DNA of 64,000 nt, from positions 3,200,001 to 3,264,000 of the forward strand of contig CBDEFM010000002.1 in NCBI GenBank assembly GCA_965237415.1, given 5' to 3'. The notes under the pieces were generated by a model. That model was not told the DNA's origin and searched no databases. It saw only the letters and a program-made list of their open reading frames with translations. Within the stretch, counting starts at the first letter, position 1, and each line of letters opens with the position of its first letter. The stretch comes from Alphaproteobacteria bacterium (GTDB lineage Bacteria > Pseudomonadota > Alphaproteobacteria > UBA828). The translations under genes were made by a program, and so were the position numbers. Of this stretch, positions 778-47,016 are shown in pieces.

Positions 778-987
778 TCAGTCCAGAACGACCAGATTCT
801 CTGCCGACGCTCTACCGTCGCGGCCCGGTGTCAGTTCGTACTCGACCTTCTGGCCTTCGCGCAGGTTGGTGAGTCCCGCCTGCTCGACAGCGGAGATGTG
901 AACGAACGCGTCCTTAGAACCGTCGCTCGGCTGAATGAAGCCGTAGCCTTTGACCGAGTTGAACCACTTCACCGTTCCAGTCGCCAT
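778..987 (-). CDS. cspA: Cold-shock protein
   Basis: GTVKWFN..KGYGFI and FVHISA RNP motifs, 69 aa, AAGGAG RBS. Confidence 0.95.
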   Translation of the reverse strand: MATGTVKWFNSVKGYGFIQPSDGSKDAFVHISAVEQAGLTNLREGQKVEYELTPGRDGRASAENLVVLD

Positions 988-1080
988 AACTACTCCTTTC
1001 GCATAGTTTTACGCCCGCGCCGCAATGTGCGGCGTCGCGGGAGCTCGGGGCGCAGCGTGTCTCTAGAGTAGCTTGGCCAG

Positions 1081-1109
1081 GCTATAGCCAGTCAGCGAAG
1101 ATACATCAA
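1081..1109 (-). promoter_or_regulatory. Candidate sigma70 promoter of csp
   Basis: Minus strand TTGATG-17 nt-TATAGC; would give a leader of about 90 nt. Confidence 0.5.
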
Positions 1110-1199
1110 GGTCACGTGCAACCGACCAGTTACTTGTTGGTCCATTGTTGCCCGCTTTGCAAGGGGTTTCGCGTCCCGCGGATCGCGCGGTGGGGTCCG

Positions 1200-2867
1200 T
1201 CAGCTGCCCTTCGGCAGAAGCTTGAACGCCCATTTGACCGTGATCGCATCCTCGATCGGCCCTGTCAGCGCGACCTGCGAGGTGCGCCGCCGGGTTACAC
1301 CGTCGCCGGCGTATACACTCTCGTCGATGCTCATCGACGCGCCGGCGGCTCGCACCTGCCATATCGCACCGCTGGGGAGTCGCAGGAGGACCGCACGGCG
1401 ATCCTCGGTCATCGCGCAGCGCACGTCGGGATGCAGGTGGAAACGCAGCGCAAACTCGCGTCCCCGTCGCCGCCGCTGCCTGAGGTGCGTGAGCGAATCC
1501 TCACCGCGCACATCGGCGCCCGCGGCGCCCACATATAGTCTGCGCTTGTGGATCAGGCCGAGCGTGTCCAGGTAGCCGTCGTGGCTGGCGTCGATCCAGG
1601 TCGAACCGTCCTGGTTGCGCCGCTCGACCTTCACCGTGTTCGGGCCCTCCGCAATCGTGCCATCCGCGCCGAGTGTCGCCGTGTTGGTGTCGTCGACGAC
1701 GAGTGTGCTGTGGGCCGCCGTCCCGCGCAGAGCCTCCTGCCACCCGTCGTCAGCTCCCCGCCAACCGCCGCAATTGACGATGAGGCGCTCCCGCCCGGCG
1801 CTCATCTCCAGGCTCAACGTGCCGGCATGGGCCCAGCGCCCGGTGGTCGACGGGGCGCCGGTGTCCGCAATCAGGGTGGTGTGCTTTCCCTGGATCCGCG
1901 TGAATCCGATATCGGGCGCATCGAGCGAGGTGCCGCCGCTGCTTGCCGCCCTTCGACTGAGGGCGAGATCGATCAAGCCCCGCTCCTCCTCGACGCCGCC
2001 GTTGAACAGGGCGAGCCCGCCGTCGCCGTGGCGGAACAGGCGCAGTGCCGACGCGAGGCGGCCGATCCCCTCAGAGAGCGCTTGTGACGCCGGGTGCCCG
2101 CCCTCGTCGAGAGTCGCCCGCAGCCCCGCGAGGCACCATAGCGCCGCGAGGTGCGCCGACGGGTTCCGGCCGAGTTGATTGCCGTTGCCTGCTGCGTGCC
2201 GCGCCAGCGCCGCTTCGAGGAGCTTGAGGCCTTGCGCGATGCGCCGCTCACCCTCCGGGAGGCAGAGTCCGCTTTCGATCGACCCCCGGAACGCGATCAG
2301 CTGCGGCAGCCCTTCGTCCGCGTTGCGCGCGGTGCGCGTCAGGTGGCTGGCCTGGAGCTCAAGCGCCTGATGGAAGCGCCGGGCGAACTCGTCGTCTGCG
2401 CCTTGCAGCAGAAACGCGCTGTGGGCGAACCAGGCCGTGAGCCGTCGCCCGAGGGTTTCGGGCCCCCAAGCCGACACCGCAGCGCTTTCGATCGTGCGGT
2501 GTTGCCGCAGCCAATCGAGCACCATCGCGCGGCCACGCTCCGCTGCCTGGCCCGTGCCAGCCGCATTCAGATCGCGCAGCCAGGCGAAGCCGTGGAGCTC
2601 GCTCAGCCAGTAATCACCGGCCTCCCGATGACGCCAGGGCGTTTCGCCGGGTTCGCCGACCTCGGCGGCGCGGACAACTTGGCCGCCGAAGTCGTAGAGG
2701 CCCGCGGCCAGTGCTTCGCCGCGCCCGGCAACCCCTGGCACGAGATCGATCGACCGGTGCAGGAGTTGCGGTATCTGTTCGGATGTTCCCCGCCCGGACG
2801 CACGACGGCGCAGCCGCCGCAGGGCACCGAGAAAGCCCTCCGAGGCCTGCTCGTCCCTCGCGCCCAT
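1200..2867 (-). CDS. Heparinase II/III family protein
   Basis: LHGFAWLRDL, RHGDGGLALFNG, HAGTLSLEMS, LIVNCG and RFHLHP motifs; start chosen at MGARDEQ, downstream of rpe. Confidence 0.85.
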   Translation of the reverse strand: MGARDEQASEGFLGALRRLRRRASGRGTSEQIPQLLHRSIDLVPGVAGRGEALAAGLYDFGGQVVRAAEVGEPGETPWRHREAGDYWLSELHGFAWLRDLNAAGTGQAAERGRAMVLDWLRQHRTIESAAVSAWGPETLGRRLTAWFAHSAFLLQGADDEFARRFHQALELQASHLTRTARNADEGLPQLIAFRGSIESGLCLPEGERRIAQGLKLLEAALARHAAGNGNQLGRNPSAHLAALWCLAGLRATLDEGGHPASQALSEGIGRLASALRLFRHGDGGLALFNGGVEEERGLIDLALSRRAASSGGTSLDAPDIGFTRIQGKHTTLIADTGAPSTTGRWAHAGTLSLEMSAGRERLIVNCGGWRGADDGWQEALRGTAAHSTLVVDDTNTATLGADGTIAEGPNTVKVERRNQDGSTWIDASHDGYLDTLGLIHKRRLYVGAAGADVRGEDSLTHLRQRRRRGREFALRFHLHPDVRCAMTEDRRAVLLRLPSGAIWQVRAAGASMSIDESVYAGDGVTRRRTSQVALTGPIEDAITVKWAFKLLPKGS

Positions 2868-2881
2868 GGAATTGGGTGGGA

Positions 2882-3613
2882 CTAGGAGACCGACGCGCCG
2901 ATCGCGCGCGGCCCTGCGCGGGTGCCTCGCGAGGCCGTGCGCCCCGCCTCCCCCGCTGCTCTCAGTCGCGCGATATTGCCATGATAATCGGCCCGGCCGC
3001 CGGCGAAGCTTGCAGAGCCCGCAACCAGCACGTCGGCACCGGCGCCAGACGCGAGGCCCGCCGTCTGCTCGTCGATCCCGCCATCGACCGAGAGGTCGAC
3101 GGCGCACCCGCTCGCGTCGATGAGCGCCCTCAGCGCTTCGATCTTGCCGAGTTGGCTCGGGATAAACCGCTGGCCGCCGAAACCGGGATTGACGCTCATC
3201 ACGAGCACGAGATCGATATCGCCCAGAACCGGCTCGACGGCATGGATGGGCGTCGCCGGGTTGAGCGCGACGCCTGCGCGCTTGCCCATGCCCTTGATGC
3301 GCTGGAGGGTCCTGTGCAGGTGGGCGCCCGCCTCGGCGTGAACGGTGATGCAATCGGCGCCGGCCTCAGCGAACGGCTCGATGAAGGGATCGGGCGGCGT
3401 GACCATCAGATGGACATCGAAGGGGCGTGTGCTGTGGGGTCTGAGCGCCGCCACCACGCCTGCGCCGATGGTCAGGTTGGGCACGAAGTGCCCGTCCATC
3501 ACGTCGATATGCAGCCAGTCGGCGCCGGCGTCCGAGATCGCTCGCACCTCCTCGCCCAGGCGCGAAAAATCTGCCGCTAGAACGGACGCTGCGATCCGAA
3601 GCTTCTGCTGCAT
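2882..3613 (-). CDS. rpe: Ribulose-phosphate 3-epimerase
   Basis: HIDVMDGHFVPNLT, DVHLM, MSVNPGFGGQ, VDGGI. Confidence 0.95.
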   Translation of the reverse strand: MQQKLRIAASVLAADFSRLGEEVRAISDAGADWLHIDVMDGHFVPNLTIGAGVVAALRPHSTRPFDVHLMVTPPDPFIEPFAEAGADCITVHAEAGAHLHRTLQRIKGMGKRAGVALNPATPIHAVEPVLGDIDLVLVMSVNPGFGGQRFIPSQLGKIEALRALIDASGCAVDLSVDGGIDEQTAGLASGAGADVLVAGSASFAGGRADYHGNIARLRAAGEAGRTASRGTRAGPRAIGASVS

Positions 3614-3632
3614 GGCGAGGTCTGGTACCAGC

Positions 3633-4946
3633 TTAGCCAAGGTGCCGCAAGCGTGCGGCGTAGAAGCCGTCCATCCCGCCGTCTTTCGCCCAATGGCAGG
3701 GGAGCGTGCGGAGATCGCCGGCTGTCGTGATGGCTTCGCCGACTCCCGCTAGCTCGCCCGGGCGCACCGGCAGGCGTGCGAAATCCGTAGCCGCCTCGAG
3801 AAACGCGTCCACCTGGCGCTCGCATTCTTCCGGCTGGAGCGAGCAGCTCGCGTAGACCAGGAGCCCCCCCGGCGCCACCATGGCAGCGGCACGAGCCAGC
3901 AATCGGCCCTGCAATTCGGCGAGGCGGGCAACGTCGGCGGGGCGGCGGCCGTGCAGAACATCGGGGTGGCGTCTGATGGTCCCGGTCGCCGTGCACGGTG
4001 CATCGAGGAGCACCAAGTGGGCCTGCGCCGCCGGGTGCCAGTCGAGCGCATCCGCCTCCACGATCTCGGCCTCGAGGTGGAGCCTGGCGAGGTTCTCCCT
4101 GAGCCGGGCAAGGCGGGGGGCGGAGCGATCGACAGCGGTGACCCGCGCGCCGGCGGCAGCGAGCTGCGCGGTCTTGCCCCCAGGCGCGGCGCCGATCTCC
4201 AATACCTGCTTGCCGGCGACCGGGCCAAACAAACGGGCCGGCAGCGCTGCCGCCGCATCCTGCACCCACCACTCACCCGCCTCATAACCAGCCAGCCGCG
4301 TCACCTCGCCGGCGCCGCGCAGCCGCAGCGTGCCGCCGGGCAGACGCTCGGCGGCGAGTGCGGCGCAGAGCGCCTGGGCCCGCTCTTCCGTATCGGTGAG
4401 CGGCGAGAGGTCCAGCGGCGGCTCCTTGAGGTGGGCCTCGGCGATGGCCCGGCAACGCGCGTCGCCATAAGCTTGCGCCCAGCTCCGCCAGAGCCAGTCG
4501 GGGGTATTGAGGCGGGCCGCATCGAGCGCCGCGATCGCGCCGTGTTCGCGGCTCGCCCGGCGCAGCACCGCGTTGACGAGCCCGCGATAGGGCGCGAGCC
4601 GCGGCCCTTGTGCGAGCGCGACGGTGCTCGCCACCGCCGCGTGAGCGGGCGTCTCCAGGAAGGCGAGCTGGGCGATACCGAGCCGAAGCACGTCCTGCAC
4701 CGGCCCGCGCCGTGCGGGTAACGGACGATCCATGAGTCCGGCCAGAAAGGCATCGATCTGGCCGAGGCGGCGGAGCGTCGTCAGCAGCAGCAGTCGTGTG
4801 AAAGCAGCGTCGCGCGGCGAGAGCGCATCCAGCCCTGGTGCTGCGGCGAGCGCCTGATCGAGGGTACGACCCCGGCGCAGGATCGCACCCAGCGCATGGG
4901 CCGCGACCGCGCGTGCATCGCTCGGCGGGCTACTGGTCGACGACAA
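3633..4946 (-). CDS. rsmB: RsmB/NOP-family rRNA m5C methyltransferase with NusB-like N-terminal domain (start uncertain, TTG)
   Basis: VNAVLRR, VQDAAA, AAPGGKT, LLDAPCTATGTIRRHPD, YASCSL; overlaps the stop of the upstream gene. Confidence 0.88.
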   Translation of the reverse strand: MSSTSSPPSDARAVAAHALGAILRRGRTLDQALAAAPGLDALSPRDAAFTRLLLLTTLRRLGQIDAFLAGLMDRPLPARRGPVQDVLRLGIAQLAFLETPAHAAVASTVALAQGPRLAPYRGLVNAVLRRASREHGAIAALDAARLNTPDWLWRSWAQAYGDARCRAIAEAHLKEPPLDLSPLTDTEERAQALCAALAAERLPGGTLRLRGAGEVTRLAGYEAGEWWVQDAAAALPARLFGPVAGKQVLEIGAAPGGKTAQLAAAGARVTAVDRSAPRLARLRENLARLHLEAEIVEADALDWHPAAQAHLVLLDAPCTATGTIRRHPDVLHGRRPADVARLAELQGRLLARAAAMVAPGGLLVYASCSLQPEECERQVDAFLEAATDFARLPVRPGELAGVGEAITTAGDLRTLPCHWAKDGGMDGFYAARLRHLG

Positions 4947-38674: not shown

Positions 38675-39808
38675 CTACTGCGTGCCGCCCTGGCGGCGTT
38701 GAAGCTCGGGCAGGGGCAGGTAGGGCACGACGCCGGAGGAGCCCCCCGCGCCCGAATCGATGATGATCTTGTCCAGCCCGCCGAGCACTTCCTCCATCGT
38801 CTCCAGATACATGCGCCGGCGGACGACATCCGCGTTCTGCGCGTACTCGGCGTGGACCGCAACGAAGCGCGACGCCTCGCCCTGGGCCTCGGCGACGATC
38901 TGCTCCTTGTAGGCCGTGCCCTCCTGCACGAGGCGTTCCGCCGCGCCGCGTGCACGCGGGATGATGTCGTTGCGGTAGGACTCGGCCTCGTTCTTCGCCC
39001 GCTCCTGGTCCGCCCGCGCGGCCTGCACGTCGCGGAAGCTGGCGATCACCGCGTCCGGCGGCGCAATGTCCTGCGGCTCGATCTGGGTGACTTCGATGCC
39101 GGCGCCGTAATAGTCCAGGATCGACTGGGTCAGTTCGTGAGTCTGCTGGGCCAAGAGAAACCGCTCCTCGGCAAGGGCGGATTGCAGGCGGGTCTTGCCG
39201 ATCACCTCGCGCATCGCGCTCTCGGCCGCGTCCCTCACCGTGCGGTCCGGCGCCTGGATGTTGAACAGATACTGGCCGGCATCGCGGATGCGCCAGAAGG
39301 CGGTGAACTTCACGTCGATGATGTTCTCATCGCCGGTGAGCATCAGACTCTCGTCCGGCACTGGCCGCGTGAACGCCCCCCGGTTGGAGTCAACCAGGGT
39401 CCGGTAGCCGATCTCGGCCCGGTTGATCTTCGTCACCTTGGGCAAGAGAACCGTCTCGAAGGGCCAGGGCAGATGATAGTTGAGGCCCGGCTGGGTAGTC
39501 TGGGTCCACTCGCCCCAGCGCAGCACCACGCCCTGCTCGTCGGGCTCGACGCGGTAGAAGCCGGTCAGCAGCCAGATGCCGAGCACGATGATGAGGAGCA
39601 GGATGAGGCCGCGGCCCCCGCGCACTCCGGGCATAAATCGGCGGAAGCGATCCTGCCCACGCCGGAGCATCTCTTCGAGGTCTGGCGGTGGGGTTTGCTG
39701 CCCACCACGCCGGCCGCCGCCGCCCGGTGAGCGGCCCCACGGGCCGCCACCACCGCCGCCGCCGCCGCTTTGCCAGCCGCCACCGCCGCCTTGGCTAGAC
39801 CAGGGCAT
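38675..39808 (-). CDS. hflK: FtsH modulator HflK
   Basis: MPW...GPWG...PPDLEE N-terminus, MLTGDENI, RRMYLETME. Confidence 0.95.
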   Translation of the reverse strand: MPWSSQGGGGGWQSGGGGGGGGPWGRSPGGGGRRGGQQTPPPDLEEMLRRGQDRFRRFMPGVRGGRGLILLLIIVLGIWLLTGFYRVEPDEQGVVLRWGEWTQTTQPGLNYHLPWPFETVLLPKVTKINRAEIGYRTLVDSNRGAFTRPVPDESLMLTGDENIIDVKFTAFWRIRDAGQYLFNIQAPDRTVRDAAESAMREVIGKTRLQSALAEERFLLAQQTHELTQSILDYYGAGIEVTQIEPQDIAPPDAVIASFRDVQAARADQERAKNEAESYRNDIIPRARGAAERLVQEGTAYKEQIVAEAQGEASRFVAVHAEYAQNADVVRRRMYLETMEEVLGGLDKIIIDSGAGGSSGVVPYLPLPELQRRQGGTQ

Positions 39809-39938
39809 GGTTCGGCCTCTCCTCCAAGGCTTTGCAAGCTATCATCGGCGCCTTATAAGTCATGCGGTCGCCGCACGCAACGGCGCGCTTGCACGCTCGC
39901 AGCTATCCGCGGCGCGCCCCCCGGGTCGGAGTGGAACG

Positions 39939-41105
39939 ATGGCGTCAGTCACCAAGGAGCAGGTTCTGGCGGCGCTGACCGATGTCTTGGACCCGGACAG
40001 CGGGCAGAACGTCGTCGCCGGCGGGCTGATCAGCGGTGTGGTGGTCAAGGACGGCAACGTCGGTTTTGCGCTCGAGGTCGACCCGGCTCAGGGCGCGGCG
40101 AAGGAGCCGCTGCGCAAGGCCTGCGAGACGGCGGTCGACCGGTTGCCCGGCGTGCTCTCGGTGACGGCGGTGATGACCGCCGAGAGGCAGGCCTCCGGCC
40201 AGGCGAACGGCCACAGCGACGCGCATGGACATGGTCACGCTCATGGCGGGCAGGCCCAGGCGGGGGCGTCGCAGGCGGGGGCGTCGCAGGCGGACCAACT
40301 CCTGCCCGGCGTGAAGAGCTTGATCGCCATCGCGTCGGGCAAGGGTGGAGTCGGCAAGTCGACGACAGCCGTGAACCTCGCTACGGCCATGGCCGCCCAG
40401 AACGTCCGGGTCGGTCTGCTCGACTGCGACATCTACGGCCCCTCGATCCCGCGCATGCTCAATCTGAGCGGCCAGCCGGAGTTGGTGGGGGAGCGCACGC
40501 TGCGCCCCATGGCGAATTACGGGATCAAGTGCATGTCGATCGGGTTCCTCGTCGCCGAGGACACGGCCATGATCTGGCGCGGCCCGATGGTCATGCAGGC
40601 GCTCGAACAGATGATGCGCGACGTCGATTGGGGCGAGCTTGACGTGCTGCTTTGCGACTTGCCGCCGGGCACCGGCGATGCGCAGCTCACCATGGCGCAG
40701 CGGGTCCCGCTCACCGGCGCCGTGATCGTCTCGACCCCGCAGGATATCGCGCTGCTCGACGTGACCCGGGGCATCAACATGTTCCAGCAGGTCAACGTGC
40801 CGATCTTCGGGGTCGTGGAAAACATGAGCTACTACGTGTGCCCCGAGTGCGGCCACCGCGCCGAGATCTTCCACCATGGCGGCGCGCGCGAGACGGCGCG
40901 CCGTCTCGGTGTCGACTTCCTGGGCGAAATTCCGCTCGACCTGGACATCAGAACGACCTCGGATTCGGGCCGCCCCATCGTGGTCACCCAGCCTGACAGC
41001 CCCCACGCCGCGTCCTACCGGCGGATCGCCGCCGGCCTCATCGACAAGGCGACCTCGGCGGTGGGCGGCGCGGGGCGCCCGCAGCCCCGCATCGTCATGA
41101 TGTGA
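39939..41105 (+). CDS. apbC: Mrp/ApbC Fe-S cluster carrier ATPase
   Basis: SGKGGVGKST, DIYGPS, WRGPM, DLPPGTGD, ENMS..CPEC. Confidence 0.93.
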   Translation: MASVTKEQVLAALTDVLDPDSGQNVVAGGLISGVVVKDGNVGFALEVDPAQGAAKEPLRKACETAVDRLPGVLSVTAVMTAERQASGQANGHSDAHGHGHAHGGQAQAGASQAGASQADQLLPGVKSLIAIASGKGGVGKSTTAVNLATAMAAQNVRVGLLDCDIYGPSIPRMLNLSGQPELVGERTLRPMANYGIKCMSIGFLVAEDTAMIWRGPMVMQALEQMMRDVDWGELDVLLCDLPPGTGDAQLTMAQRVPLTGAVIVSTPQDIALLDVTRGINMFQQVNVPIFGVVENMSYYVCPECGHRAEIFHHGGARETARRLGVDFLGEIPLDLDIRTTSDSGRPIVVTQPDSPHAASYRRIAAGLIDKATSAVGGAGRPQPRIVMM

Positions 41106-41117
41106 AGGTCGCCGCCG

Positions 41118-41801
41118 ATGGCGCGCAGGCGGATCGACGACGTTCTTCAGGTACTATCGGGCCATCTGGGCCGCCGACGGTGGATCGGCGCGGGCCTCGT
41201 CGCCCTTCTCCTGGCTGCGCTGGTTGCCGGCTGCGCTCCCTCGGTTCCGGATCGTCAGCAGGACCTCTGCGCGGTCTTTCACCAACATCCCGACTGGTAC
41301 GACTACGCGAAGGACGCAGCGAACGAGTGGGGCGTGCCGATCCCCGTCCTCATGGCCTTCGTGCACCACGAATCGAGTTTCCGGAGCGATGCGCGGCCGC
41401 CCCGCAAGTACGTCCTCTGGATCATCCCCTGGGGCCGGGTGTCGTCCGCCAAGGGATACGCCCAGGCGCAGGACCCGGCCTGGAGCGACTACACGGACGA
41501 GCGCGGCTCGTTCTTCCGCAGCCGTTCTGACTTGGAAGACGCCCTCGATTTCATCGGCTGGTACAACCACGGGACGGCGCGCGAGCTCGGGATCGCCAAG
41601 ACCGACGCGCGCAACCTCTATCTCGCCTATCACGAGGGTCGCGGCGGCTACCGGCGCGGCACCTGGAAAGGCAAGCCGAAGCTGCAGCGCATTGCCGAGC
41701 GCGTGGCCGAGACCGCGCGGCGCTACCAGGCGCAGCTCAAGCGCTGCGAATCAGAATTCCGCTGCGACGCCTGGTACGAGCTATGGCCCTTCTGTAGCTG
41801 A
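41118..41801 (+). CDS. Lipoprotein with SLT/lysozyme-like transglycosylase domain
   Basis: Lipobox LVAGC; MAFVHHESSF, SAKGYAQA, LYLAYHEG. Confidence 0.75.
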   Translation: MARRRIDDVLQVLSGHLGRRRWIGAGLVALLLAALVAGCAPSVPDRQQDLCAVFHQHPDWYDYAKDAANEWGVPIPVLMAFVHHESSFRSDARPPRKYVLWIIPWGRVSSAKGYAQAQDPAWSDYTDERGSFFRSRSDLEDALDFIGWYNHGTARELGIAKTDARNLYLAYHEGRGGYRRGTWKGKPKLQRIAERVAETARRYQAQLKRCESEFRCDAWYELWPFCS

Positions 41802-41876
41802 TCGCCCGCCCGGCATTCTCGCCACGATTCCCGCCCCTTCCTTTGGGGATTATACGCCTAACTAGCCATTTTCCGT

Positions 41877-41905
41877 TTGACGCCAGCCTGCATTATCGCC
41901 ACAAT
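41877..41905 (+). promoter_or_regulatory. Candidate sigma70 promoter of the IS operon
   Basis: TTGACG-17 nt-CACAAT just inside the left TIR; followed by ACTAGCCA, a copy of the inner TIR segment. Confidence 0.55.
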
Positions 41906-41949
41906 ACTAGCCAAGAAAGCGCTTGCGGCGAATCGAGAGGATGCTGAAG

Positions 41950-42891
41950 ATGGCTAAGCGTGGTCCTGGCAAGGCGCACCGAGAGGGGCTGACGGTCATT
42001 GAACTGTTCAAGCTCTTTCCCGACGATGCCACCGCCGAAGTGTGGTTTGAGGCACAGCGCTGGCCGGAAGGCCGGTTCTGCCCGGACTGCGGATCGACCA
42101 ACACGGTTGAGGTCAAAAGCCGCAAGCCCATGCCCTATCGGTGCCGCGACTGCCGCCACCACTTCTCCGTCCGCAAGGGCACGGCAATGCAGTCCTCCAA
42201 GATCGGGCTGCAAAAGTGGGTCATCGCGCTCTACATGATGACCACCGGCCTCAAGGGCACATCCAGCATGAAGCTCTACCGCGAGGTCGGCATCCGGCAG
42301 GCCACGGCATGGTTTTTGATGCAGCGCATCCGGGAAGGCTTCACGGACGGCGAGAACCAGCCCTTTCCCGGCCCCGTAGAGGCCGATGAGACGTACATGG
42401 GCGGCAAGCGGAAGAACATGCCGAAAGCGAAGCGCAAGACGCTGACGGGGCGCGGAGCGGTCGGTAAGGTGGCAGTCGCAGGCGTGAAGGATCGAGCGAC
42501 CAACCGCGTCGTGGCTCGGTCAGTTCCGGCTACCGACAAGCCGACCCTTCAAGGCTTTGTTGCCCAGCATGCGGCTCCCGACGCCAAAGTGTTCACCGAC
42601 GATGCCAGCGCCTACGAAGGGCTGCCCTTCGATCACGAGGCGGTCTGTCACTCCGCCGGTGAGTATGTTCGCGGTATGGCGCACACCAACGGCATCGAGT
42701 CGTTCTGGTCGATGCTCAAGAGGGGCTATCAGGGCACCTATCACCACCTGAGCGAGAAGCACTTGGATCGCTATGTCGCGGAGTTCGCGGGTCGCCATAA
42801 TGTTCGCGAGTTTGACACGATCACGCAGATGTCCCAGCTGGCGAAGGGCATGGTCGGCAAGCGCCTCACCTATCGCGAGTTGGTCGCTTGA
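41950..42891 (+). CDS. IS1595-family transposase
   Basis: Zn finger CPDC...CRDC; VEADETY, FTD, H..V.H....YV, HTNGIESFW, Y..EF. Confidence 0.95.
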   Translation: MAKRGPGKAHREGLTVIELFKLFPDDATAEVWFEAQRWPEGRFCPDCGSTNTVEVKSRKPMPYRCRDCRHHFSVRKGTAMQSSKIGLQKWVIALYMMTTGLKGTSSMKLYREVGIRQATAWFLMQRIREGFTDGENQPFPGPVEADETYMGGKRKNMPKAKRKTLTGRGAVGKVAVAGVKDRATNRVVARSVPATDKPTLQGFVAQHAAPDAKVFTDDASAYEGLPFDHEAVCHSAGEYVRGMAHTNGIESFWSMLKRGYQGTYHHLSEKHLDRYVAEFAGRHNVREFDTITQMSQLAKGMVGKRLTYRELVA

Positions 42892-43835
42892 GCGGGGAGA
42901 CGCTTGAAACGAGAGGGTATGCTGGGACTGGTGCGCGCGGCGCCCCCTACATCAAAGCGGACACCTACACCCCTTCCCATCATGTTCGGGTCGACGATCT
43001 GGAGAGAGACCCGTTCACCGAAATCTCGCAGTGCTTGCTACTATGCGGAGACGCAAGGCAGGCCCTCTCGCTTCTCCCGGATAACTCGGTTCAGACCGTT
43101 CTGACTTCGCCACCCTATTGGTCTCTCCGAGACTACGAGGTCGAGGAACAGACTGGGAGGGACGACAATCTGGACTCCTACATTGAGAGCGTTGTCGGGA
43201 CCTTCGACGAGGTGTTCCGTGTCCTTCGGGACGACGGCACCGTTTGGCTGAATGTCGGGGATTCCTATACCTCCGGGAATCGCCGCTACCGAGCCCCTGA
43301 TCGAAAGAACCGCGCGCGAGCAATGCAAGTTCGCCCCCCGACACCTGAGGGGTTGAAGCCAAAGGATCTGATCGGCGTTCCATGGCGGTTGGCATTCGCC
43401 CTTCAGGAAGCCGGGTGGTGGCTCCGCAGCGAAGTTATTTGGCACAAGCCGAACGCGCATCCTGAATCGGTTCTGGATCGGCCGACAAAGGCGCACGAGA
43501 CGATATTCCTGCTATCGAAGGCCAAGGATTACCACTACGACATTGAAGCCGTTCGTGGCCCTAAGGGCCGTCGCCTGCGTTCCGTGTGGGATTTGCCTAC
43601 CGAGCCGGTGAAACGATCGAACGGTCGGGCCGACGACCATCCAGCGATGATGCCGCTCACACTCGCCCTGCGGTGCATCGCGATCACCGGCCGCAAGGAT
43701 GGTGTTGTGCTCGATCCTTATGCAGGTTCCGGGACCACCCTGCTGGCGGCGGCCGAACACGGATACATGTGGGTCGGAGCCGAAATCAAGCCGTCTTTCG
43801 TCGACCTGATCGAGCACCGGATAGACGACGCGTGA
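42888..43835 (+). CDS. Site-specific DNA methyltransferase, beta class (N4-C likely)
   Basis: TSPPYW.LRDY precedes DPYAGSGTT; KPKDLIGVPWRLAFALQ..GWWLRS, HP; TTG start overlaps the transposase stop. Confidence 0.92.
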   Translation: MSGETLETRGYAGTGARGAPYIKADTYTPSHHVRVDDLERDPFTEISQCLLLCGDARQALSLLPDNSVQTVLTSPPYWSLRDYEVEEQTGRDDNLDSYIESVVGTFDEVFRVLRDDGTVWLNVGDSYTSGNRRYRAPDRKNRARAMQVRPPTPEGLKPKDLIGVPWRLAFALQEAGWWLRSEVIWHKPNAHPESVLDRPTKAHETIFLLSKAKDYHYDIEAVRGPKGRRLRSVWDLPTEPVKRSNGRADDHPAMMPLTLALRCIAITGRKDGVVLDPYAGSGTTLLAAAEHGYMWVGAEIKPSFVDLIEHRIDDA

Positions 43836-44587
43836 CCCTCGAAGAACTAAAGGCGACGCTCGACTCCTTCTCCTCCGTGCAGATCGAGTTCGTGGCGAGA
43901 GTCATGGACTCCCTCGCCAACCCGCCCAGCGCTGACATCCGGCGAGCCGGAACATGGCTCACGGGGACGCCGGAATGGATGGAGTATTTTGGGCTAGCGC
44001 TGTCCGTTCATCACAGCGCGACCACCGAGCCATTGGGGTTGACGGCCTTCGAGGCCGTGTTCCGGAATGCCTGCGAGCATCTCGGCTGGCCCGTCGACCC
44101 TCCGGGATCGCGGACGCGCCGGTTCGTCGATCTGACCGTTCAGCCGGACACTGGACCGGAGCGGCGACTATCGCTGAAATCTACTGCGGCCGGCAATCTC
44201 TCACATACGTCCGTCCACATTTCCAAGCTCACCGAGGCTGCTTGGGTGCAGGACACACGCACCGCAAGAGCGAGGCAGAGTCGGACGTGGGAACTGTTCC
44301 GGGAATACCAGTCCGCCGTCAGCCATATCGTCATGCTTCGAGCGTTCCGAGAGGGGCAGGACCGTGTTCCGCGCCTCTATCAACTCGTAGAGATACCGGC
44401 CAGCATCTTCGACTCGATCCAGTCTGCCCCGCTGTCTGTATTCGAGCGCGATGCGCCGCTCATAGAGTGCGAGGTCGACGGCGAGGCGGCTGCCGTGGTT
44501 GCCATTGATCGATCCGACGCCAAAATCACCATCAGGCGGATACAGCTTGCTGCCTGTACTGTTCACGCCGAATGGAGCCGAGCATGA
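43832..44587 (+). CDS. Putative type II restriction endonuclease, SmaI-like
   Basis: GTG start overlaps the MTase stop; blocks FG..L..HH, F...F, SRT...D.T, LSLKS.A, H.SK..E, YQLVEIP, C.VH..W match R.SmaI as I recall it. Confidence 0.72.
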   Translation: MTLEELKATLDSFSSVQIEFVARVMDSLANPPSADIRRAGTWLTGTPEWMEYFGLALSVHHSATTEPLGLTAFEAVFRNACEHLGWPVDPPGSRTRRFVDLTVQPDTGPERRLSLKSTAAGNLSHTSVHISKLTEAAWVQDTRTARARQSRTWELFREYQSAVSHIVMLRAFREGQDRVPRLYQLVEIPASIFDSIQSAPLSVFERDAPLIECEVDGEAAAVVAIDRSDAKITIRRIQLAACTVHAEWSRA

Positions 44588-44748
44588 CCGAAAAGCCGAA
44601 ACCGCGTGGCCGTCCGCCAAAGGCAATCCCGAAGCTGAACGCCACGCCGGAGCGCGCAGCCCGCGCCATATTCTCCGCCGTGAAACCCGCCGACCCCACA
44701 ATCCGCGTTCAGAAGCCCCACATGCGGAAGCCGAAACCGAGGGATTGA
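44584..44748 (+). CDS. Small basic protein (54 aa) with AT-hook-like PRGRPPK
   Basis: ATGA overlap with the endonuclease stop; MTEKPKPRGRPPKAIPKLNATPERAARAIF...; below the ORF-track length cutoff. Confidence 0.6.
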   Translation: MTEKPKPRGRPPKAIPKLNATPERAARAIFSAVKPADPTIRVQKPHMRKPKPRD

Positions 44749-44752
44749 TGAG

Positions 44753-45040
44753 ATGGGGGAACGATGGATCGCCAACCCCGAGATGCCCAAGCCGTTCCCG
44801 CTGAAACTGGAGTCAATCCGCAGAGCGGCTGTGGAACGATGGGGTGATGCTCCCATTTTGGAAGATGAATCCGCCAGGGCCACAATTCTGCTGTGGGTCT
44901 ACGCTGGGTGCCCAGACGCAGCGGATGTTTGCCTCAACGTCGCAACACGCCAACCACCCGTCCCAGGACAGGGAGAGATGAATCCCGAAGCATTCATGAC
45001 CGCGCTCTTCAAGCGCGGGGTCTTTCTGCCTGCAGAATAG
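44753..45040 (+). CDS. Hypothetical IS passenger protein (95 aa)
   Basis: ATG 4 nt after the previous stop; ends 9 nt before the right TIR; no recognised motif. Confidence 0.5.
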   Translation: MGERWIANPEMPKPFPLKLESIRRAAVERWGDAPILEDESARATILLWVYAGCPDAADVCLNVATRQPPVPGQGEMNPEAFMTALFKRGVFLPAE

Positions 45041-45246
45041 CCGACGGGTTGGCTAGTTAGGCGTATAATCCCCCTTCCTTTCGGGTTCCCAGAACCATGG
45101 TGCGGTGCCCGGCGTGCGATTCCAGCGCCAGGATGGCGCCATGCAAAGCGCGAGCAAGTGGGGCATGGCATCGAGAATCGGGGTCAGCGGGCGTTCTCTG
45201 GGCGCGCGGTTGCCGCGCGTGGTTTGCGCGGCCTCTTGTCTCGCGG

Positions 45247-45286
45247 AATCCCACTTAATCCCACTTAATCCCGGCGAATCCCGCTT
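45247..45286 (+). repeat. 10-bp periodic AATCCC repeat, four copies
   Basis: aatcccactt aatcccactt aatcccggcg aatcccgctt. Confidence 0.75.
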
Positions 45287-45424
45287 CGATTTAATTTGTC
45301 GCCCAAGGTGGGACGCGGAATCGGACCGCGAGCGTGGTGAGAAATGAGGGCGACTGGCCCGTTTCCGAGGTTTCTACGCTTTCGACCCAATGCGTGTTCT
45401 TTTTTGGACCTCAGTTCCTCACTC

Positions 45425-45519
45425 CGTCATGCCCGGACTTGTTCCGGGCATCTCCGTCCGTCAACGCCGTCGGAGGTTGGACGGCCGCGTGGATGGCCGG
45501 AACGAGTCCGGCCATGACG
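45425..45519. repeat. REP-like palindromic element (two inverted units around a spacer)
   Basis: CGTCATGCCCGGACTTGTTCCGGGCATC ... GATGGCCGGAACGAGTCCGGCCATGACG. Confidence 0.85.
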
Positions 45520-45565
45520 AGGAGGGGACACCCTGCGAATGTGTAAGAATCTCTCGAACGGGACA

Positions 45566-46609
45566 CTAGGGATCGCGCCCCAGCACCGCCATCAGCTCGC
45601 GCCACTCGCGCTTGGAGAGCCCGCTGCTCGCCTGATCGACCGCTTCGCCGGCGAGCATGCGCTTGACCGCGGCGAGCCCGCCTGCGGAGAGCGACGCGGC
45701 GTCCATCGCATAGTCGCGGAAGGCTTGGTACGTCGCAGGCACCCAGCTCATGACGATCTTGTCGAGGATCACGTCGGCATAGGCGCGGATTTCGTACTGG
45801 GCGTGGGCATCGGCCCGGAGCGAGAGGAAGTGCAGGAGGTTGTGCAGGTCGATCTTCCAGTAGAACTGGGTGTAGTAGTTGACCGGCAGCGCCGCGCGCG
45901 CGAGCTCGCGGGCGAGCCCGGCACGATCCGGGTCCTTTCGATCCCCGCTGTCGTCCTCGTTGAGCAGGTTCTTGTAGACGCCATAGGCGCGGGTCGAAAT
46001 CCAATCGAGGCGAGAGAGTGCCTGCCGGGCCTCCTCGTCGGTCAGCACATCGTCCCGGCCCTGCATGTTGGAATCGGATTGCGCGGCGAGGGCCAACCGC
46101 TCACCCGCTGCCTCCGTGCTGCCGAACAGGTCGTCCATGCCGCTGCTGCTGGCCCGCTGGCGCCCGATCTGCTCCTCGTGGACCGATTGCAGGTGGTCCG
46201 CGTCCGGCACGTAGAACTCGCGGTCCAGCCGCGAGTAGCGCGCCGAATATTCGTTGACGCTGGCGGTGCGGTGGCGGAGCCACTGCCGCGCGACGAAGAT
46301 CGGCGCCTTGATGTGCAGCTTGAGCTCGCACATCTCGAAGGGCGTCGTGTGGCGGTGGCGCAGGAGATAGCGGATCAGCGCGCGGTCCTCCCGCACCTTG
46401 CGCGTGCCCGCGCCGTAGGAAACCCGCGCCGCCTGGACGATGGCCGCGTCGTCGCCCATGTAGTCGATCACGCGGACGAAGCCGTGATCGAGCACGTCGA
46501 AGCGCTCGTAGAGGATCGCCTCCATGGCCGGCACCGTGACGCGCCGGGTCTCCTGCGAGGTGGCGCGTTGGGCCTCGATCTCCGCCCGCTTGTGGTCGTC
46601 GATCGGCAT
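45566..46609 (-). CDS. thyX: FAD-dependent thymidylate synthase
   Basis: [41 protein letters not shown]. Confidence 0.96.
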
Positions 46610-46734
46610 GGTGTCGGTGATCCCCGGTGGCGCGGTTCGGCCGGCCAAGTCGGCGGTCGCGCTTCGCTCGGACGGCCGCTCGTGGCGCCCTATTGGCCGC
46701 TTCCATTTGGCGCCGCGACCTCCTATATTAGCTG

Positions 46735-47016
46735 GGTCGGCGGGAGACCGTCGACTATGGCGATAAACGCTGCTCGGAATAATCGTTGCGGACCCGGGGG
46801 CAGTACCCGGCGCCTCCACCACCCTTTGGGCCGGCGGCCCGCGTTGCGGGGGCGAACCAGGATCGACGTGCGTGGTAAAGGTGTAGTTTTCGCCCGGCAT
46901 GGTACCGCCGTTATCGGGCCAACGCAGAGGTGCGAATGACAATGAAGTCGCACTCGCTGCCTAGCATCGCTAGGTAAGCGCGGCTTGGGGGGCGCCGGGC
47001 AACAGAAGCCCCCCGC
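46735..47016 (+). ncRNA. ssrA: Circularly permuted two-piece tmRNA (ends approximate)
   Basis: Acceptor piece ends GGACCCGGGGGCAGTACCCGGCGCCTCCACCA (46821); coding piece begins GGGGGCGAA (46848); tag [10 protein letters not shown] at 46932-46964; upstream TTCCAT-17-TATATT. Confidence 0.95.

Follow-up and report, generated by a model that had tools for sequence, protein, structure and literature searches.

Within a 64,000-nucleotide stretch of an alphaproteobacterial genome (UBA828 lineage, assembly GCA_965237415.1; two contigs, 4.75 Mb), hereafter the window (positions 3,200,001-3,264,000 of contig 2, CBDEFM010000002.1), lies a 3229-bp insertion sequence (IS) of the IS1595 family that carries a type II restriction-modification (R-M) pair. 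Together with the short duplications on either side it spans 41837..45081 (Table 1; window coordinates throughout). An initial annotation made from the letters alone had proposed one strand of uninterrupted genes here, and the map of open reading frames (ORFs) confirms it: inside the ends lie five intact ORFs, all on the + strand, encoding a transposase, a DNA methyltransferase (MTase), a restriction endonuclease (REase) and two small proteins, s1 and s2. The element sits between the 3' ends of two convergent housekeeping genes, one for an SLT_4 transglycosylase and the other thyX, and has a GC content of 61.0% versus 66.7% for the genome.

Table 1. Features of the element in the window, followed by related IS1595-type elements at other loci (L, locus; G, genome; C, contig; G000 is the genome of the window).
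Feature	Position	Strand	Size	Basis or state
Left target-site duplication copy, CTTCCTTT	41837..41844	.	8 bp	Identical to 45074-45081
Left terminal inverted repeat, GGGGATTATACGCCTAACTAGCCA	41845..41868	+	24 nt	Inverted-repeat search; 100% complementary to right arm
Promoter-like site TTGACG-17-CACAAT, just inside left end	41877..41905	+		Consensus match only
IS1595-family transposase, N-terminal zinc ribbon and ISXO2-like DDE domain	41950..42891	+	313 aa	Pfam, NCBIfam, alignment
Predicted beta-class DNA methyltransferase, TTG start	42888..43835	+	315 aa	Pfam, PADLOC, PDB relatives
Predicted type II restriction endonuclease, GTG start, distant SmaI relative	43832..44587	+	251 aa	Pfam, PADLOC, model fold
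s1, ORF with AT-hook-like RGRPPK, ATG start	44584..44748	+	54 aa	Conserved near right end of siblings
s2, ORF, function not assigned	44753..45040	+	95 aa	Homologues only
Terminator-like stem-loop, end of s2	45000..45018	+		Structure match only
Right terminal inverted repeat	45050..45073	-	24 nt	Inverted-repeat search and whole-genome 24-mer scan
Right target-site duplication copy, CTTCCTTT	45074..45081	.	8 bp	Directly outside right arm
L060			2809 bp	Complete, exact 8-bp duplication; HTH_73 gene
L064			5754 bp	Complete, exact 8-bp duplication; contains another transposase gene
L065, L066	G011:C1:1156800-1163000, G011:C3:119000-125200		4392 bp each	Duplications TAATTTTA, AAAACAAT; DUF1902 gene in cargo
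L067			2837 bp	Methylase remnant as cargo
L068			1145 bp	Without transposase; ends and s1 kept; exact 8-bp duplication
L069	G016:C1:2713400-2720500		1585 bp	Without transposase; ends and s1 kept; Eco29kI-family nuclease (2.5e-56)
L042	G000:C1:277500-284500, element 861-4277		3417 bp	25-nt inverted repeats, exact duplication GAACTTTT
L043	G000:C2:360000-367000, about 1029-3640			31-nt imperfect inverted repeats; no clean duplication found

Short terminal inverted repeats (TIRs) combined with an 8-bp direct target duplication are a hallmark of the IS1595 family. Both are present here: the two arms pair at 24 of 24 positions and the same 8 bp stand outside each of them, so the perfect repeats and intact duplication of the initial annotation are borne out. 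The end of the element, GGGGATTAT, fits what we take to be the ISNwi1-subgroup consensus, GGnnATTAT. Exact 8-bp duplications likewise flank L030, L026, L042, L060, L064, L065, L066 and L068. When the whole 4.75-Mb genome was scanned for the 24-mer with up to three mismatches, it was found in two places only, the two ends of this element, and the reversed control gave none; the element is single-copy in its genome. A scan of 400 other genomes of the class for a 17-mer of the TIR (at most one mismatch) returned five single-end matches and zero pairs, which is uninformative, and an Rfam search of 41000-46000 returned nothing at E ≤ 0.1.

The transposase carries the N-terminal zinc ribbon and ISXO2-like DDE domain of IS1595 enzymes, and the family proposed by the initial annotation is upheld by matches to Pfam PF12762 (2e-39) and PF12760, the zinc ribbon (2.5e-8), and to NCBIfam NF033547 (190.8 bits, cut-off 75). 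An alignment with seven relatives shows that it keeps the CPxCG...CxxC, DET, TDD/E and TNxxE motifs, and every column that is invariant among the eight aligned relatives is retained, as in an intact enzyme. Transposases of this family are abundant in the genome (more than 20 tblastn places). In a plasmid collection, relatives of the transposase reach at most 42% identity and those of the nuclease at most 40%, and zero sibling elements were found.

The first four genes are joined by 4-nt stop/start overlaps, namely TTGA between transposase and MTase, GTGA between MTase and REase, and ATGA between REase and s1. Because of these overlaps, transposase, MTase, REase and s1 probably form one translationally coupled operon in which the methylase precedes the nuclease. 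The start codons in Table 1 were refined: ATG for the transposase as in sibling elements, TTG for the MTase and GTG for the REase, the latter matching the length of most homologues. The TTG at 42888 is the sole standard in-frame MTase start upstream of the conserved N-terminal region. Promoter-like sites number two in the region versus 0.8 expected from shuffles, and a TTGAC also occurs at the equivalent position in L042. Terminator-like stem-loops are not above chance, with two found versus 2.5 expected from shuffles. Contigs of a public metatranscriptome (run X15) give almost no cover over the methylase and nuclease genes (M and R), which weighs neither way on their expression.

The type II R-M pair of the initial annotation also holds, both proteins being assigned by three libraries and by fold: an MTase with motifs I and IV is followed directly by a separate endonuclease with a predicted restriction-enzyme fold. 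In the MTase, SPPY (motif IV) precedes DPYAGSGTT (motif I). The protein matches Pfam N6_N4_Mtase (PF01555, 1.4e-44) over 220 of 221 profile positions and PADLOC MTase_II (2.2e-95), and its relatives in the PDB include 2zie, CcrM and N4-cytosine MTases. A motif IV that reads SPPY points to N4-cytosine enzymes, and the MTase, a member of the beta class, is probably of this type.

The REase aligns over its full length with the SmaI profile of Pfam (PF17411) and has the fold of a PD-(D/E)XK nuclease in its predicted model, but its score, 27.4 bits, sits at the gathering cut-off of 27.3; it is therefore described as a distant SmaI relative. The same profile is matched by 22 of 27 REase homologues at E ≤ 0.001 (best 2.5e-9), and PADLOC REase_II matches the REase itself at 2.4e-16. 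A search of PDB sequences with the REase returned zero matches. We compared its AlphaFold model (pLDDT, the predicted local distance difference test, 82.3) with known structures by VIA-align, in which 3ndh_B ranked best (Z 10.4, root-mean-square deviation 3.6, 166 residues aligned), followed by BglI, NaeI, SfiI, SwaI and EcoRV; the top 15 rows comprise 13 restriction endonucleases and one homing endonuclease. This type of fold occurs in blunt cutters, among them ThaI (3ndh) and EcoRV. Foldseek against the PDB gave weak matches to EcoRV and similar entries (E about 0.01). Asp100, Ser114-x-Lys116 and Glu135 are invariant in 27 aligned sequences and are candidate catalytic residues. Judged by profile and modeled fold, the protein is probably a PD-(D/E)XK nuclease distantly akin to SmaI.

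Purifying selection acts on MTase and REase alike. Relative to eight other loci, the proportions of nonsynonymous and synonymous differences are 0.12-0.25 (pN) and 0.66-0.80 (pS), and the ratio dN/dS is 0.06-0.12 for the MTase (six of eight comparisons with an estimable dS) and 0.05-0.11 for the REase (where estimable), with dS near saturation. The hexamer CCCGGG, the site cut by SmaI, has an observed-to-expected ratio of 0.52 in the genome, third lowest of 64 palindromic hexamers, many other palindromes being under-represented as well, and it is absent inside the element (0 versus about 0.9 expected); neither finding nor the profile matches fix the recognition site.

Of the two small ORFs, s1 has 30 homologues and s2 has 11, the latter at 54-97% identity. 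No family was assigned to s1, whose Pfam AT_hook match reaches only 0.039, and s2 has no family match in Pfam. s1 is conserved beside the right end in sibling elements with other cargo, and also in L030; to judge from its placement it is part of the IS backbone and not of the R-M cargo. For s2, no counterpart was found in the sibling elements. Contigs of three sequencing runs show a 15-nt in-frame loss within s2 (44869-44885), undivided in X1 and X3 and split into 4 + 11 nt in X10, in agreement with the 90-aa homologues P0121 and P0122; this is a hint that s2 does code for a protein, one that tolerates changes in length.

The history of the insertion can be followed at its flanks. All 20 genomes of congeneric species match the flanks, and among the matches listed none crosses either junction, besides which there are 106 further weak matches. 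Hence no listed congener match shows the R-M genes at this locus, so the counter-case raised by the initial annotation, relatives with the genes here but without the ends, did not materialize. The two flanking genes are direct neighbors in 10 of the 20 congeners with a gap of 0-330 nt, and the spacers between them are not conserved. No exact empty site was found among these species representatives; the closest genome, G004, with flanks 96% identical, was considered as a candidate and rejected, its 247-nt spacer being unrelated and without CTTCCTTT.

An unoccupied site was found in contigs of public sequencing runs, so that the empty-site check proposed in the initial annotation came out in its favor. 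Contigs of four public runs were aligned to 40300-46900 at 90% likeness, and in two of them (X1 and X15, the latter an RNA library) a joined contig connects 41824 to 45082, with 20 other letters replacing 41825-41844. The net loss of 3237 nt equals exactly the 3229-nt element plus one 8-bp copy of the duplication: the element was inserted as one unit. The joined contig differs from the window by 17 letters in 209 in its left part and by 1 in 141 in its right part, and at the insertion site its 8 nt match CTTCCTTT at five of eight positions. Because of this divergence, we regard it as an unoccupied site in a relative and not as the progenitor allele. At the junctions of the element, contigs of X1 and X3 extend no more than 30 and 27 letters into flanking sequence, short of the 31 required, and were not counted as bridging. 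Three runs, each from a different study, contain contigs of 1.9-2.4 kb that depart from the element by only 1-8 letters and so are near-identical copies; one of the three may be the source sample.

The same gene set was found at other loci, where it has moved as a unit. The nuclease family comprises 906 proteins at E ≤ 0.001, the best 120 of which are 68-88% identical to the REase, and a scan of one genome per species gave nine rows, seven of them real loci with M and R. In L030, on the contig of an actinomycete metagenome-assembled genome (MAG), the order TIR-transposase-M-R-s1-TIR is complete, with ends GGGGATTATACGCCTAAGTTGC and an exact duplication AAACTATA on both sides; its transposase is 64% identical to that of the window. 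L026, from an alphaproteobacterial MAG, repeats this order: a transposase 50% identical to that of the window is followed by M and R, and the imperfect ends, flanked by the duplication AAACGAAT, also enclose two small ORFs, one s1-like and the other membrane-like. The 4-nt overlap of transposase and MTase is kept in all three intact elements despite transposases only 50-64% identical. At about 6128-6150 of L026, a second IS1595-type end (GGGGCTTACATCGAATAGTCACC), similar to that of L042, starts right after the right duplication, which suggests a back-to-back insertion.

The other occurrences of the pair are without an intact transposase. In L027, 41 aa of the transposase are left, L028 and L029 contain M and R alone, and L031 and L032 are frameshifted; for L025, no left TIR was found with up to seven mismatches. 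Within the genus the pair stands at other loci in four species. In two of these, G011 and G009, the locus (L021 and L022) is orthologous and 90% identical and consists of M and R with the last 25-32 transposase codons upstream; in the other two, G016 (nuclease split over two frames) and G003, no transposase is detectable. L021 (G011:C1:169000-177000) and L022 (G009:C9:1200000-1208000) are without s1 and without ends, and by the look of their sequences are an immobilized descendant retained through speciation. Of the 12 loci counted in total, three hold an intact element flanked by a duplication, three have transposase remnants and six have none. M and R occur together at all 12, with the frame broken for the REase in L023 and L031 and for both enzymes in L032.

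Sibling elements with other cargo, anticipated by the initial annotation, were found within the genus. Homologues of s1 are present in 7 of 20 congeners and absent from 28 genomes that represent other genera within the order, each sibling s1 lying 1-4 kb downstream of a transposase 69-72% identical to that of the window. The right ends beside s1 are in most cases 1-3 letters off that of the window, and the TIRs are near-identical; for L061, L062 and L063, no left TIR was found with up to eight mismatches. The cargo occupies a slot bounded by the stop codon of the transposase and by s1, and in the siblings this slot holds other modules (Table 1). Since two 4392-bp copies, L065 and L066, stand on two replicons of G011 with different duplications, we read them as direct evidence that cargo-bearing members of the subfamily transpose. 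Their DUF1902 gene is presumably HicB-like. Pfam returned nothing for most sibling cargo ORFs. In L069, a 268-aa ORF with a weak N6_N4_Mtase match (0.0062) lies beside the apparently intact Eco29kI-family nuclease, and its identity as a methylase is doubtful. In siblings without R-M cargo, s1 is preceded by a conserved segment of about 60 nt; this segment is missing in the methylase- or nuclease-bearing forms (the window element, L067 and L069), in which s1 abuts the upstream gene.

The genome of the window itself contains two more distant cargo-bearing IS1595 elements. Besides its transposase, L042 encodes a 475-aa fusion of a methyltransferase with an HNH nuclease, and it has ORFs of 138 aa and 212 aa, neither of which has a Pfam match. 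L043 has a single cargo gene, which encodes a methyltransferase-Mrr_cat fusion of 540 aa and shares a 4-nt overlap with the transposase stop.

The element is, we think, very likely an IS1595-family transporter IS (tIS) that is autonomous and was inserted as one unit with its type II R-M pair. A tIS is organized like an IS, with one transposase, TIRs and a duplication, and has in addition passengers that play no part in transposition; here M, R and s2 stand in the passenger position, after the transposase and before the right TIR. The mobility of such whole units is seen in the joined form, in the different duplications of L030 and L026, and in the two sibling copies in G011. In the proposed course of events, the element would have inserted between the transglycosylase gene and thyX, duplicating 8 bp of an AT-richer target; the promoter-like site at the left end may drive one transcript carrying transposase, methylase, nuclease and s1 in translational coupling; and the R-M pair would methylate host DNA and cut unmethylated incoming DNA. 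Enzyme activity, specificity, defense and post-segregational killing are all parts of this picture that we infer.

Several findings weigh against this reading. The promoter and the terminator are consensus matches only. The element is single-copy in its genome, which makes present transposase activity no more than putative. The nearest congener, G004, has a different spacer of 247 nt without CTTCCTTT, and the joined contig comes from a diverged relative, was recovered by alignment at 90% likeness, and in one of its two holders stems from an RNA library. The SmaI score lies right at the cut-off and Foldseek reaches only E about 0.01, so specificity is not readable. Finally, only three of 12 loci are intact, and therefore the pair mostly persists without mobility.

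The last point, together with the single copy, could also describe a recent insertion that is now inert, its transposase or ends dead and its R-M pair becoming a fixed chromosomal system. Nine of 12 loci carry the pair without an intact transposase, and the L021/L022 remnant, orthologous in two species at 90% identity, indicates that the pair was kept long after mobility was lost. For the window element itself we think this rather unlikely: its TIRs and duplication are perfect, its transposase is intact with all columns invariant among eight relatives kept, and the site is unoccupied in a related population. It is improbable, too, that the cargo is no longer a restriction system, for example a methylase acting alone as an epigenetic or orphan enzyme beside an inactive or repurposed nuclease. 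This would fit a nuclease that meets the SmaI model only at cut-off, but selection on the nuclease is as strong as on the MTase, its candidate catalytic residues do not vary in the 27 sequences aligned, its predicted model has a restriction-endonuclease fold, and M is accompanied by R at all 12 loci, though with frames broken in L023, L031 and L032. With more than 20 places matching IS1595 transposases in the genome, one might also imagine a resident R-M pair that happens to have an ordinary IS1595 copy on one side and a stray solo end on the other, with a chance 8-bp repeat. Such an accident has next to no probability and is already contradicted: the 24-mer occurs at these two places only and the repeat lies exactly outside both arms, contigs joined without the whole unit exist, the same gene order recurs with the same kind of ends and its own duplications in two other phyla or classes, and the transposase stop overlaps the MTase start.

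A bolder reading, which we put forward tentatively and regard as possible though on the doubtful side, is that this IS1595 subfamily serves as a modular vehicle with a fixed slot into which self-stabilizing modules are swapped. The slot would have held at least two restriction nucleases unrelated to each other, SmaI-type and Eco29kI-type, a methylase remnant, and HicB-like or toxin-antitoxin-like pairs. Chaining of the R-M forms to the transposase by translation would make an insertion hard to lose, and s1, kept even in derivatives without a transposase, could be an undescribed accessory protein or site that transposition or its control requires.

Both ingredients of the element, tISs of the IS1595 family and transposon-borne R-M systems, have already been described, and we regard it as a clear and very clean further example. 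According to passages in PMC3129680, 10.1101/2021.05.26.445724 and PMC11891212, the passenger-carrying tIS was defined on the IS1595 family by Siguier, Gagnevin and Chandler in 2009 (Res Microbiol 160:232), and a passage in PMC2853133 groups Siguier et al. 2009 with other studies in which R-M systems or solitary M genes were reported to have flanking ISs. Such tISs, as these passages describe them, are like the window element in that one transposase of the IS1595 type and its passengers are enclosed by short TIRs and an 8-bp duplication, while the SmaI-family cargo, the 4-nt coupling of transposase to cargo and the right-end s1 have no match in those descriptions. The portions of Furuta, Abe and Kobayashi 2010 (PMC2853133) that we draw on report R-M units built like transposons: they have inverted repeats and 8-bp duplications, and empty sites are described as well. 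Among them are a unit in X. oryzae with 65-bp inverted repeats and an 8-bp duplication, and one in N. gonorrhoeae with 26-bp inverted repeats and an 8-bp duplication that holds a type IIG gene and a COG3677 transposase-like gene. Common to these units and the window element are R-M genes within inverted repeats, an 8-bp duplication and an empty site in a relative. As far as those portions go, the window element differs in its intact, clearly IS1595-type transposase, in its separate M and R pair and in its slot-defining siblings. The same portions state that some type II R-M systems cause killing upon gene loss (post-segregational killing). R-M systems on transposons were also noted by Khan et al. 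2010. Our full-text literature search found no description of this element or of an IS1595 tIS with a SmaI-type R-M pair; ISfinder and REBASE lay outside that search, and a named entry may exist in ISfinder.

The element leaves current concepts unchanged. It offers a compact, intact example in which a type II R-M system can travel with one transposase alone, and the unoccupied site of a relative, intact siblings from two further lineages and decayed descendants lay out a life cycle of arrival, spread, transposase loss and long retention of the R-M pair. Of most interest, in our view, are the modular slot and, with it, the conserved s1. Within this genus, the family would make a convenient system in which to study whether addictive cargo stabilizes insertions, how cargo is exchanged in the slot and what role s1 plays.

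Two observations concern the surroundings of the element. A dispersed intergenic repeat containing AATCCCACTTAATCCCACTTAATCCC lies at 45248-45569, with further copies at C2:1055211, 1281205, 3919897 and 94348 and also in G004; it has no Rfam match, and its summed metagenome contig depth reaches 9722 versus about 200-400 for the flanks. Upstream, the longest ORF of an Mrp/ApbC-type Fe-S ATPase gene (39576-41105) places about 120 Pro/Arg-rich codons ahead of its Pfam domains, and this start is probably an over-long ORF call and not a real extension.

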